From a virus: a stretch of DNA of 64,000 nucleotides. The notes beneath the pieces were generated by a model. It saw nothing but the letters and a program-made list of their open reading frames with translations. It made no database searches and had not been told where the DNA came from. The translations under genes and the position numbers were made by a program. The stretch covers positions 64,001 through 128,000 of the IMG/VR virus record IMGVR_UViG_3300015360_000024; one strand, written 5' to 3'. Below are positions 40,891 to 44,231 of the stretch, piece after piece; position 1 is the stretch's first letter, and every line of letters begins with the position of its first letter.

Positions 40891-43206
40891 ATGCCAGGCA
40901 AGCACACCAACAAAGCAAAGCGCTTCAGCAAGCGCGTCAACGAGTCTTCGGCCTGGCTGTTCGCTGGTCCCGGAAACCCCGTGTACATGGGTAACCCAGA
41001 TCCGGTGAGCCAGTTCAACCCAAGCGGCCAGGTGTCGCCAGGTGCGGGCTATATCCCTGACGAGGTCGCCAAGATGCTCGTCAAGGAGAGCGGCCTCAGG
41101 AAGTCCGACACGATCCCCAAGAGGGTCATCGAGAGCTACCTGGAGTCGATGCGGCTATCCAAGGGCCTTGCTGTCGATGTTGCCAGGGTTCTTCGTGACG
41201 TCTACGGCATCACACCGACATTCGACGAATCGTCACTCTACGCCATATCCGGTTCGCTTATTGAGGAGCTGACCGGGGCGATGAACGAGAGCTTCCCGAT
41301 GCCGTTCGCGTTCGATGATGAGCCCAGGATCTTGAACGAGGTCGACCTGGTCGGCTCGTTCATTCAACGCGAGTTCATGGAATCGACGGACGAGAACTAC
41401 GATCTCGTTCTCGGAACCCTGGCGCTGCTCCCTTACCGGGAGTTCTGCGATGTCGTTGACTTCCATGAGTGGGTTGGCGAAGACGCCTTCAACCAGATCG
41501 AAGATCTCGCCATCAATGGTCCAGACGGCATGGCCGAGATGGTGCTCGAAGGCCTCTGCTGGCCGAGTCGCATCAAGCTCATGCCGGAGCATGTCCAGGA
41601 TCTATTCGAGGACGCTGCGGATGACGTCATCAAGGCAGGGACGGCGAAGCTGAAGAGCAGGATGCCGGCGATTCCGCCTGTTCCGAAGGGTGGCCCAGCG
41701 AAGCCTGCTCTTAAGAGCGCTTCCGGTAAGCCAGGGATGAAGATACCAGCGATCAAGGCTAAGCCAACGGTCCCTTCGTTCAAGAAGCAGATGGCCAAAC
41801 ACGGCAAGGATATGGCCAGCGATCCACTTGCTGCCAAGAAGCCTGGCGCTGCCCTCGCGGCACACCGTGAGAAACAGGACAAGGACTGGGATGCCGCGCA
41901 TGCAGCTGCGAAGGCGCGACACGCTGATGAACCCGAGAAGACGGTTCCGAAGGGTAGCCGCCTAAAGAAGGCAGGGACTGCCGCCATCGGCGCGATGAAG
42001 AAGGTCGGCGGCGCCTTCAAGAAGGCCAGCGACTTCCTTCATGCCCCCGGCAAAGCGGTCAGCCACGCAGCGAAGAGCGTCGCTAAGGGCACCGCCAAGG
42101 TTGGCGGTGGACTCGTCACCGGAGCGCTCAAGGCGGTCGGTCACGTTGGCGGTACTCTCGCCAAGGGTGTGGTTGGTGGCTTTACTGGTAAGAGCCACTC
42201 GAATTCTGGTTCGGACCACGACTCCGACGACGGCGACTCGAAACCAGAGAAGAAGAAGGGCCCAGGCGTTCTCGGTCACATCGGCCGGGCTATCGGCAAG
42301 TTTGCTGGTCACGTCAAGAAGGGCTTCAAAGATGCATCTCCTGGCATCGCGCACGTTGCCGGTAGTGGCAAGGAGCCTGAGAAGGCAAAGGAGCCAGAGG
42401 CCGAACCGAAGAAGAAGAAGCGGATGACCACCTCGCAGGTTGGTCAGGAGTCCGTTTATGCGAGCGGATCTCTTATCGGCGAGGTTGAGGCCATGCTTGG
42501 CGGTCAGTCCATCGAGGACGAGACAGAGGAAGAGGAGACAGTTCGTTCACCTGCTGAGGTCGTGGACACGCTGGAAGCTACTTCGGTTGTAGACCAGGCG
42601 GTCTGCGAGGCCCTGTCCGAGATGGACTGGGACGGCGTGGCCAAGATGGCCGGTTTCATGATGCTCGTGCCACAGCGGTTCCTCGGTCTCGTTCAGTCCT
42701 TCAAGGAGGGAACGGACGAGTTCAGGGCTGAGTGGCATGAGCTTGAGGAGAGCGGCTCGAAGCCGAGCTGGATGAACATTGGTTCGTTCGTGACGCTCGC
42801 GAAGCTCTCGCTGGACGAGGGTGTGATCCCGAGGATTGTCTACTTCGCTGGCAAGGCGCTCCAAGCAGCAGACGAGGCCGTGGCCGCACATGTCAACGAG
42901 AGCTATCCGGAGCTTGGTCAGACGGTCTACGGACCGGCAGGAGATCCCAAGGAGGGTCCTCAGCTGGCGAAGTCTTATCTGACCCCTCAGCCGACTGGAA
43001 CGATGACCCCGACCAAGAGTGATTGCACGACGCGGATGTTCTCGGATCCTGCGGACCGCGAGAAGGCACGCAAGGCGAAGCTCTCCGACGTCATGGACGT
43101 TCTCAATGGAATGCGTAGCGCTGCGGCGGCGGCCGGCGTTGCTCCTGAGGGAATGTTCCTGAACCTCTATCGCGACATGCACCGAGAGAAGGTTCGGTAC
43201 AGCTAA
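40891..43206 (+). CDS. large hypothetical protein: acidic domains flanking a K/G/A/H-rich low-complexity core
   Basis: 771 aa with strong codon bias. Confidence 0.8.
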   Translation: MPGKHTNKAKRFSKRVNESSAWLFAGPGNPVYMGNPDPVSQFNPSGQVSPGAGYIPDEVAKMLVKESGLRKSDTIPKRVIESYLESMRLSKGLAVDVARVLRDVYGITPTFDESSLYAISGSLIEELTGAMNESFPMPFAFDDEPRILNEVDLVGSFIQREFMESTDENYDLVLGTLALLPYREFCDVVDFHEWVGEDAFNQIEDLAINGPDGMAEMVLEGLCWPSRIKLMPEHVQDLFEDAADDVIKAGTAKLKSRMPAIPPVPKGGPAKPALKSASGKPGMKIPAIKAKPTVPSFKKQMAKHGKDMASDPLAAKKPGAALAAHREKQDKDWDAAHAAAKARHADEPEKTVPKGSRLKKAGTAAIGAMKKVGGAFKKASDFLHAPGKAVSHAAKSVAKGTAKVGGGLVTGALKAVGHVGGTLAKGVVGGFTGKSHSNSGSDHDSDDGDSKPEKKKGPGVLGHIGRAIGKFAGHVKKGFKDASPGIAHVAGSGKEPEKAKEPEAEPKKKKRMTTSQVGQESVYASGSLIGEVEAMLGGQSIEDETEEEETVRSPAEVVDTLEATSVVDQAVCEALSEMDWDGVAKMAGFMMLVPQRFLGLVQSFKEGTDEFRAEWHELEESGSKPSWMNIGSFVTLAKLSLDEGVIPRIVYFAGKALQAADEAVAAHVNESYPELGQTVYGPAGDPKEGPQLAKSYLTPQPTGTMTPTKSDCTTRMFSDPADREKARKAKLSDVMDVLNGMRSAAAAAGVAPEGMFLNLYRDMHREKVRYS

Positions 43207-43286
43207 TGGTGATGGATCCGGCCAAGATTGCCGTGGCGGTTTCCAGTGGCCTTAGCATCGTCTGCGCGCTCGATTTATGGATCTGA
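43206..43286 (+). pseudogene. orphaned 5' fragment of the gene now starting at 43815
   Basis: MVMDPAKIAVAVSSGLSIVCA-LDLWI*; 15 of 20 aa identical to the 43815 N-terminus. Confidence 0.75.
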
Positions 43287-43290
43287 TACT

Positions 43291-43818
43291 ATGTCCCTTC
43301 AGATGCCATTCAAAAACATCGATGACAAGCGAGCGAATGCTCGTAGGTATTGGGCAGAGAACAAGACTCGTCTGTATGTTGCGCAGAGAGAATACGTAGC
43401 GAAGCGGAATGAGTCAGATCCTGAGTTCAGGAAGCAGACGCTCGATCGTCAGGCGGAATGGGCTCGACGAAATCCAGAAAAGAAAAAGGCCATCCAGGCA
43501 AGGAATGAAGCCAAGAACGGCGAGAGAAACGCAAGAAGCCGTAGAAATGCAAAGCTGAAGCACGATCACGGAATCACCGTGGATGAGTACGAGGCGATTC
43601 TAGAGAATCAGTCTGGTGGATGTGCCATCTGTGGATCTAGGTCAGCCAACAATGGTTCGAGAACCAACCTCTTCGTCGATCACTGCCATGAGACGTCTGC
43701 AGTAAGGGGATTGCTTTGCAATCCGTGCAATCTCGGTCTTGGTAACTTCATGGATAATCCTGAATTACTGATCAAGGCTGCCAACTACGTCGATAAATCA
43801 AGGCGGACGACACCATGA
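43291..43818 (+). mobile_element. Endonuclease VII-like (His-Me finger) homing endonuclease
   Basis: GITVDEYEAILENQSGGCAICG...FVDHCHETSAVRGLLCNPCNLGLG; AT-richer than its neighbours. Confidence 0.85.
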
Positions 43819-44231
43819 TGGATTCAACGAAGATTGCAGCAGCTGTTGCCAGCGGATTGTCGATTGTGTGTGCGACCTGCGAGAAGTACTGGGAAGCAAG
43901 GGACAGGGGAGTCCCTGACGACAGATGTCTCGCGGTAGACGGCTGCGGGTCTCCTATTGCCGGTGACGTGTTCCACGAATATCGCGGGCCGATGACTCAG
44001 TTCGACCAATTCTGCTTTCGTTGTGGAGATCGGGCTACGCATGCGGTGCGCGTGGATAACAGCGTCAGGGTGATCGGCGTCTGTTCGGCTCACGTCGAAA
44101 TGATCAAGACGCTGAAACCTGAAGGCAAACGTGCGCCGAACGTCGTCCTTATCTCCAAGGATGGCGAGAAACAAATCACAGATAAAGACGCCCCGCAGAG
44201 ACGCCAATCTCTCCTCAAGTTGAAGTGGTAA
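43815..44231 (+). CDS. Cys-rich zinc-binding hypothetical protein
   Basis: CATC, CFRC, CSAH motifs; ATGA overlap with the endonuclease. Confidence 0.72.
   Translation: MMDSTKIAAAVASGLSIVCATCEKYWEARDRGVPDDRCLAVDGCGSPIAGDVFHEYRGPMTQFDQFCFRCGDRATHAVRVDNSVRVIGVCSAHVEMIKTLKPEGKRAPNVVLISKDGEKQITDKDAPQRRQSLLKLKW

Follow-up and report, generated by a model that had tools for sequence, protein, structure and literature searches.

In phage T4, the MobA/gene 60 cassette places an HNH nuclease in the topoisomerase open reading frame (ORF) and brings a new N-terminal extension with a diverged region, homR, that holds the nick site, according to the summary in 10.1101/2022.08.31.505936 (citing Bonocora et al. 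2011 PNAS). As described there, MobA has inserted independently at one site in several clades, each of which has empty relatives that are 96–99% identical (10.1101/2022.08.31.505936). In fungal mitochondria, mobile ORFs with duplicated gene termini are described for Allomyces macrogynus atp6, for Glomus atp6, atp9, cox2 and nad3, for Rhizopus atp9 and for Mortierella cox2 (as outlined in PMC3630166, citing Paquin et al. 1994); in that account, the native terminus is 91–98% identical to relatives and the inserted copy 64–81% (PMC3630166). Intronless homing of the free-standing phage nucleases SegF, SegG, SegB and MobE is described as a general mechanism (PMC2988022), and F-CphI, a DHHRN homing endonuclease encoded by a free-standing gene next to psbA, cuts an intron insertion site (PMC6083498). 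The locus described here lies in a 64,000-nucleotide (nt) stretch of a 194-kb uncultured phage (IMG/VR virus record IMGVR_UViG_3300015360_000024, positions 64,001 to 128,000; hereafter the window, in which all coordinates are given unless a contig is named). In this stretch, a 606-bp block with an Endonuclease VII-type gene interrupts a conserved gene, geneB: the resident 5′ end of geneB is left behind as an orphan fragment (the stub), and geneB begins instead with a second, diverged 5′ end (the replacement copy). There is strong reason to read the block as a site-specific homing-endonuclease cassette inside a conserved phage gene, with the gene kept by N-terminal replacement and not by splicing.

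The boundaries of the cassette are defined by uninterrupted alleles. An earlier note on this DNA, made from the sequence alone, had predicted an empty allele in which the fragment at 43206 is joined straight to the sequence after 43874, and this arrangement was found in the close relatives L007, L008 and L097, which have no nuclease block. In a MAFFT alignment of the window with L007, whose geneB is 93% identical at the amino acid (aa) level and 89% at the nt level, the cassette appears as a single clean gap of 606 bp at exactly 43269–43874, in agreement with the placement of the insertion after codon ~21 in the earlier note. The closest geneB homologues are P0002 (93%), P0003 and P0004. P0002 starts with the exact 21 residues of the stub, P0003 and P0004 start with close variants of them, and after those residues all three proceed like the window geneB from 43875. 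Because the stub residues are the N-terminus of P0002 and P0002 then continues as the window gene does from 43875, the duplication is not a chance resemblance. The overlap with the upstream gene, geneA, is also parallel: in the empty alleles L007, L008 and L002 the geneA stop and geneB start overlap as TGATG, and at the window stub as TAATG. The 21 N-terminal residues of the stub align with the start of the 138-aa ORF, and a recount codon by codon gave exactly the figures of the earlier note, with 15 of 20 residues identical and 9 of these 15 encoded by different codons. Seven successive synonymous changes between stub and replacement copy stand directly 5′ of the last shared Ala codon. Rescue of geneB without splicing, as proposed in the same note, is upheld by a start codon of its own that overlaps the nuclease stop, by zero Rfam introns, and by the recurrence of the layout at the same codon in two further phages, L044 and L063 (in the latter displaced by 5 nt, see below).

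The cassette is also distinct in composition: the GC content falls from ~0.60 to ~0.49 across 43225–43900, with flanks of 0.60 and ~0.49–0.50 in the cassette itself. Both junctions are crossed by contigs of three further microbial-mat runs (left, 43174–43324; right, 43685–43877 and 43695–44031) with no differences, and these contigs from independent samples rule out an assembly artefact. No join that bypasses the cassette was found in the contigs of the further microbial-mat runs; that the empty allele was not seen in those samples is of no evidential weight. A blastn search of the locus against phage GenBank records gave zero matches. A near-identical 39.9-kb contig of run X1 has G for T at position 44226, which changes the last geneB residue from W to G, and G is the residue of most homologues. 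The parts of the locus, together with the corresponding parts in L044, are collected in Table 1. A 7-nt sequence in the left linker, ATGGATC, was considered as a third remnant of the geneB start and dropped, as it is too short to tell from chance.

Table 1 Features of the interrupted geneB locus in the window and in phage L044.
Feature	Sequence	Coordinates	Strand	Description
Upstream gene, geneA	window	40891..43206	+	771 aa; stop TAA overlaps the stub ATG (TAATG)
Native part of stub, orphaned resident 5′ end of geneB	window	43206..43268	+	start + 20 codons; 21 residues, the N-terminus of P0002
Stub ORF	window	43206..43286	+	26 aa: 21 native + 5 cassette-derived codons, then TGA
Inserted cassette	window	43269..43874	+	606 bp: linker + nuclease gene + replacement 5′ end
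Left linker of cassette	window	43269..43290	+	22 nt; closes the stub frame; read from sequence
Homing endonuclease gene (predicted)	window	43291..43818	+	175 aa; Endonuclease VII catalytic motif
Replacement ("rescue") 5′ end of geneB	window	43815..43874	+	start + 19 codons; ATG overlaps the nuclease stop (ATGA)
Functional hybrid geneB (predicted)	window	43815..44231	+	138 aa, Cys-rich; ORF continuous
Resident part of geneB	window	43875..44231	+	3′ of the insertion point; 89% nt identity to L007 over 330 nt
Stub ORF	L044	4928-5008		26 aa; truncated after the Ala codon at which the window stub also breaks; its stop overlaps the start of the nuclease ORF
Nuclease	L044	5001-5531		between stub and geneB
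geneB	L044	5518-		new, different 5′ end; start 14 nt inside the nuclease ORF

The two 5′ ends of geneB differ in their relation to the host. Over the 57 nt 5′ of the junction, the stub is 89% identical to L007 and the replacement copy (43818–43874) 74%, compared with 89% over the 330 nt 3′ of the junction. As a control, all pairs of uninterrupted alleles were compared for 5′ and downstream identity: native pairs with a downstream identity of 0.85–0.95 have a 5′ identity of 0.84–0.89 (n = 7), and those with a downstream identity of at least 0.95 have a 5′ identity of 0.96–1.00 (n = 3). Measured against these native pairs, the stub falls in line, whereas the replacement copies stand out as outliers. 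The GC content at third codon positions (GC3) is 0.75 in the stub, like that of the host genes (0.65–0.72), and 0.50 in the replacement copy, close to the 0.54 of the nuclease, in accord with the nuclease-like composition that the earlier note had ascribed to this copy. In L044, the corresponding values are 0.45 for the replacement copy and 0.48 for the nuclease, again unlike the 0.65–0.75 of the host genes overall, and the GC3 of the replacement copy matches that of the nuclease in two of the three cases. Because the identity and GC3 of the stub fit the host and the downstream copy is the outlier, the stub is resident DNA left over from the insertion, and the replacement copy is foreign DNA brought by the cassette.

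A more specific claim of the earlier note, that the replacement copy carries a synonymous recoding, held in part. The different spelling at 9 of 15 codons stands, and special recoding was rejected as improbable. Where natural alleles share the seven residues 5′ of the junction, their codons depart from those of the stub at 3–6 of 7 positions (the replacement copy at 7 of 7), both Ser codon families occur naturally at the position concerned, and one natural allele, L106, is spelled much like the replacement copy. The recoding does not exceed what natural alleles with ~25–30% divergence show. The different spelling probably goes back to an earlier host richer in AT, whose allele has since been swapped in part with those of new hosts, and selection against self-cleavage may contribute to it.

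The layout of stub, nuclease and new start was found in three phage lineages (the window, L044 and L063), each with an empty-site relative, and the cassette is present in ~3 of ~60 distinct geneB alleles. The target genes of these lineages are 44–47% identical (44% between the window and L044). Presence and absence are polymorphic at one precise site, between the window and L007, L008 and L097, between L044 and L223, and between L063 and L073, L072 and L076. L044 is a distant phage known from contigs of 35.6 kb and 222 kb (the P0078 locus), and its junction falls on the identical codon boundary to that of the window, after the Ala codon of ..VCA/TC.. (the slash marks the junction). Its relative L223 (P0198; 83% aa identity to L044 geneB) is without the block L044:4988–5574, the blastn match of L044 to its empty-site relative breaks at L044:4987, and the N-terminus of L223 fits the L044 stub, including a distinctive NGTS, where the L044 replacement copy has SGLS. 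In L063, the stub (in the region L063:1–549), of which 15 nt are present before the contig end, runs in frame into the nuclease, and a stub–nuclease fusion protein is possible. As in the window, the L063 nuclease ends in an ATGA that also holds the start codon of the new geneB, whose replacement 5′ end (57 nt) is ~47–49% identical to native ones. The empty allele L073 is 97.9% identical to L063 over 3351 bp, beginning 9 nt 5′ of the junction, and the empty sites L072 and L076 are 99% identical to L063 over the 330 nt after the junction. A scan for exact matches to the L063 left junction returned the same contig alone. Because the layout recurs in two distant phages with empty relatives of their own, one pair of which is 98% identical up to the junction, the cassette is regarded as a recurring mobile unit.

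Two contigs show other states of the region around geneB. Like L063, the related contig L076 stops short, 71 nt 5′ of geneB, a pattern that would arise if carrier and empty alleles were present together in the sample and interrupted the assembly. In L001 (L001:5798–5995, the same as contig L048), a degenerate 65-aa remnant of a related Endonuclease VII-type nuclease lies exactly between the geneA homologue and geneB; a stub is absent. This remnant retains 20 residues at its N-terminus and 40 at its C-terminus, has lost the middle with the first CxxC, and is flanked by an imperfect 12-nt direct repeat of the stop/start junction. A foreign 5′ end in the L001 geneB was considered and is not supported, as the 5′ identity fits the downstream identity.

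The nuclease ORF of the window (43291–43818) matches the Pfam family PF02945, Endonuclease_7, with 84.9 bits against a cut-off of 23.6 (E 3.6e-24) and PHROG families annotated as endonuclease VII (E 6e-33). PF02945 is the only Pfam match in the nuclease and the block, with no Hint domain. The motif set of the DHHRN family comprises an N-terminal CX2-4C, a central DH(D)H, an R, a CX2C and a distal N (PMC6083498). All of these motifs are found in the ORF, as CAIC, DHCH, the R of VRGLLC, CNPC and a following N, and the H, R, C, C and N are invariant in a six-sequence nuclease alignment (A2). Judged by these residues, the gene is intact and encodes a DHHRN/HNH-type nuclease with all catalytic and zinc residues. 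Based on a conserved "MP[YF]" start, the true start of the nuclease may lie at 43303. Among 5.8 billion proteins, the only full-length close relative is P0078, the L044 nuclease (48% identity). The window and L044 nucleases are mutual closest full-length relatives, and their host geneB genes are just 44% identical. The L063 nuclease is 41% identical in alignment A2. Two near relatives, P0084 and P0079, occupy other sites, beside an RNase H-like gene and a helicase, and a third relative, P0085, is on a contig with no further gene. When 115 other loci with related Endonuclease VII-type nucleases were included, a strict in-frame screen for N-terminal duplication returned the window and L044 only; an earlier Smith-Waterman screen of those 115 loci had returned only low-complexity, out-of-frame artefacts.

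A mechanism can be proposed that accounts for this arrangement. During co-infection, the nuclease would cut or nick an uninterrupted allele near the insertion site, and repair would proceed from the cassette-bearing genome, with the stub as the left homology arm and the geneB body as the right. The linker, the nuclease and the replacement 5′ end would be copied in, and the 5′ end of the recipient would be demoted to the new stub, which would explain why each stub matches its own lineage. Carriers would be protected from their own nuclease at both half-sites: the left one (the stub) is followed by the linker, and the right one is preceded by a copy with 11–16 mismatches in the 30 nt 5′ of the junction (11 in the window, replacement copy versus stub; 14 in L044; 16 in L063, versus native L073). 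The stub may have a part in expression as well. In all three lineages, the stub frame stops at or runs into the nuclease start, with a spacing of 4 nt between the end of the stub ORF and the nuclease ATG in the window, and in the window and L063 a single ATGA holds both the stop of the nuclease and the start of the new geneB. The left linker of the window (43269–43290) shows no obvious Shine-Dalgarno sequence that would serve the nuclease. From this spacing, the stub would retain the translational coupling of geneB to geneA and feed ribosomes to the nuclease start, through termination–reinitiation in two of the cases (the window and L044) and through fusion of the two frames in the third (L063), and a chain of translational coupling could run from geneA through the stub and the nuclease to geneB. 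The stub would thus be a retained launch pad for translation of the nuclease and not mere debris.

Other histories of the locus were weighed. The nuclease might normally be intergenic and move by intronless homing, in which case the duplication would be the accident of a one-off illegitimate repair, would have no role and would not have spread as a unit. An intergenic arrangement does exist at the locus, in the L001/L048 nuclease remnant that lies between the two genes without a stub. However, three lineages with target genes that are 44–47% identical share the layout, with junctions that coincide or lie no more than 5 nt apart; each stub fits its own lineage, and in every case its reading frame either closes at the nuclease start or continues into it, all of which makes a single accident improbable. 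A little less probable again is an ancient single insertion, inherited vertically and lost many times with precision by recombination between stub and replacement copy, with no recent mobility. The stub and the replacement copy of the window are direct repeats, 67% identical, and a recombination event close to their 3′ ends might in principle regenerate a gene that looks native. Yet the window stub is intact and as close to L007 as the flanks are (89%), which is unexpected for an old untranslated relic, and carrier and empty genomes differ by only ~2% in the L063/L073 pair. In addition, with nucleases 48% and host genes 44% identical and the close relatives of each host nevertheless empty, this history needs many independent precise losses, and the cassette GC3 is unlike that of the host in two of the three cases.

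Removal of the block as a group I or II intron or as an intein, with the stub as exon 1 or N-extein, is the least credible of these alternatives and is given hardly any weight, even though introns or inteins are the usual home of homing endonucleases found within genes (PMC2988022, PMC3943268). The Rfam search gave no family match at E ≤ 1 except a chance match to a small nucleolar RNA (snoRNA), and so no intron signal in the block. The stub frame stops after five extra codons and the nuclease lies in another frame, and the block supplies a full second 5′ end, start codon included, which would be pointless if the block were spliced out. The empty alleles, moreover, have one copy of the 5′ end, which suffices for the gene.

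A homing cassette that replaces the start of its target gene remains the preferred explanation, and several points count against it or against parts of it. The nucleases of the window, L044 and L063 cluster only weakly in a quick tree (Shimodaira–Hasegawa-like approximate likelihood ratio test, SH-aLRT, 81–84). The L063 junction lies 5 nt further into geneB than those of the window and L044 and its stub is cut by the contig end, and the three cassettes are thus not strictly of the same structure. The GC3 of the L063 replacement copy is 0.84, compared with 0.62 in its own nuclease. For the proposed immunity, the MobA precedent is unfavorable: divergence of the element-borne region did not by itself block nicking, as reported in 10.1101/2022.08.31.505936 (citing Bonocora 2011). 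The evidence for translational coupling consists of spacing. Finally, the replacement copies of the three lineages resemble native alleles at least as much as they resemble each other; evidently, the replacement copy has been swapped with hosts over time and is not a fixed part of the cassette.

The target gene itself is conserved. About 100 homologues of geneB were found on contigs of up to 298 kb (P0049), with a constant order of neighbours in which a 279-aa gene, a 242-aa gene and the tail sheath gene lie downstream, and in L044 it lies near neck, capsid and sheath genes. This conservation and gene order suggests a role in the virion module. The alignment contains invariant Cys/His columns, with eight invariant Cys residues, some in CxxC spacing, and the product is probably a small, Cys-rich, zinc-binding protein. 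It has no Pfam or PHROG match. A confident AlphaFold model (predicted local distance difference test, pLDDT, 84.5) shows a weak resemblance to zinc fingers only, a fold search with this model gave no significant match in the PDB, and the one structural neighbour recovered, BFVD A0A6J5S5B9 (E 1e-6), comes from an uncultured phage and is uncharacterised.

Other nuclease genes, some of them putative, were observed in the same module. In L083 (L083:946–1440) and L120 (L120:562–1074), and also in L084 and L127, related nucleases that are 36–39% identical in alignment A2 lie at another site, between a gp13-like gene and the next gene. In this group, each nuclease ORF closes with a repeat of the final codons and stop codon of the gene before it (12 nt in L120), and these repeats may be a miniature, C-terminal version of the same trick. 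In L003 (L003:3036–3782), a different 248-aa Cys/His-rich, HNH-like ORF is inserted immediately 5′ of the geneA homologue. For nuclease genes, this module seems to act as a hotspot. In L044 (L044:223–1251), a 342-aa ORF right after the gp23-like capsid gene has faint LAGLIDADG_3 matches and may be another homing endonuclease in the structural module.

These loci provide three natural before/after pairs, one of them ~98% identical, for a nuclease that colonises conserved coding sequence without splicing machinery. The arrangement would explain orphan gene-start fragments and mosaic 5′ ends in phage genomes that annotation pipelines miscall, and it leads to specific predictions: a target site at the ..VCA/TC.. 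codons, immunity by means of the carried copy, and translation of the nuclease fed by the stub. It also offers a natural template for linked nuclease-plus-rescue designs. A broader proposal is put forward tentatively, its chances falling somewhat short of even: start replacement with the stub left behind may be a general third way, as yet without a name, beside introns and inteins, for phage homing endonucleases to live in coding sequence, in which the stub is recruited as a leader ORF that passes ribosomes of the host operon on to the nuclease, and the carried 5′ end is the immunity determinant of a natural "cleave and rescue" unit that copies itself. In the literature, of which coverage was incomplete, no description was found of a phage gene whose start had been replaced while a stub was kept.

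Compared with the known systems, the cassette would be an N-terminal counterpart to the C-terminal replacement of fungal mitochondria and a simpler relative of MobA/gene 60. The trait common to terminal replacement is seen here, in that the mobile nuclease gene is accompanied by a diverged version of the host segment that it displaced; the traits specific to MobA (two functional ORFs and a bypass insert) and the duplicated C-terminus of the fungal cases are absent. Like MobA, the window cassette places an HNH-type nuclease in a phage ORF without an intron or intein, combines a new start with a diverged copy of a host region and has occupied one site repeatedly and independently. In contrast, MobA, in the account cited above, splits the topoisomerase gene into two functional subunits, removes 55–75 nt from the host and depends on a 50-nt ribosomal bypass to be immune, whereas the window cassette involves no deletion and no bypass, leaves a 21-codon stub without a plausible protein role, and carries a nuclease of the Endonuclease-VII-motif family. 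As in the fungal mobile ORFs, an endonuclease ORF together with a foreign gene terminus gives a hybrid gene, with the displaced native end alongside (89% versus 74% identity here). Unlike the window cassette, the fungal elements, as outlined in their source, replace the C-terminal (3′) end downstream of the gene body, encode LAGLIDADG or GIY-YIG enzymes and reside in mitochondria; the window cassette is their N-terminal mirror image in a phage, where translation signals must be supplied anew. With intronless homing, the cassette would share the cutting of a nuclease-less allele in a co-infecting relative, the co-conversion of flanks and the protection of the carrier by target differences, a shared feature that is proposed here. 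The genes that move in that way are, however, intergenic, have cut sites up to hundreds of bases away and leave no duplicated gene fragment. F-CphI has the same catalytic scaffold (CX2-4C, DH(D)H, R, CX2C, N), but the regions outside the catalytic motif are unrelated and its target is different. In synthetic Cleave-and-Rescue (ClvR), a nuclease directed against a needed gene is tightly linked to a differently spelled copy of the target region, and the element gains ground because non-carriers are killed and is not itself copied into the cut. The window cassette, by contrast, would spread by homing, and the resistance of its copy is a prediction only. "Cleave and rescue" is therefore best used as an analogy and not as the claim of a first, since published precedents exist: by this comparison, MobA/gene 60 is the closest phage precedent, and the fungal mobile ORFs are the closest design overall.

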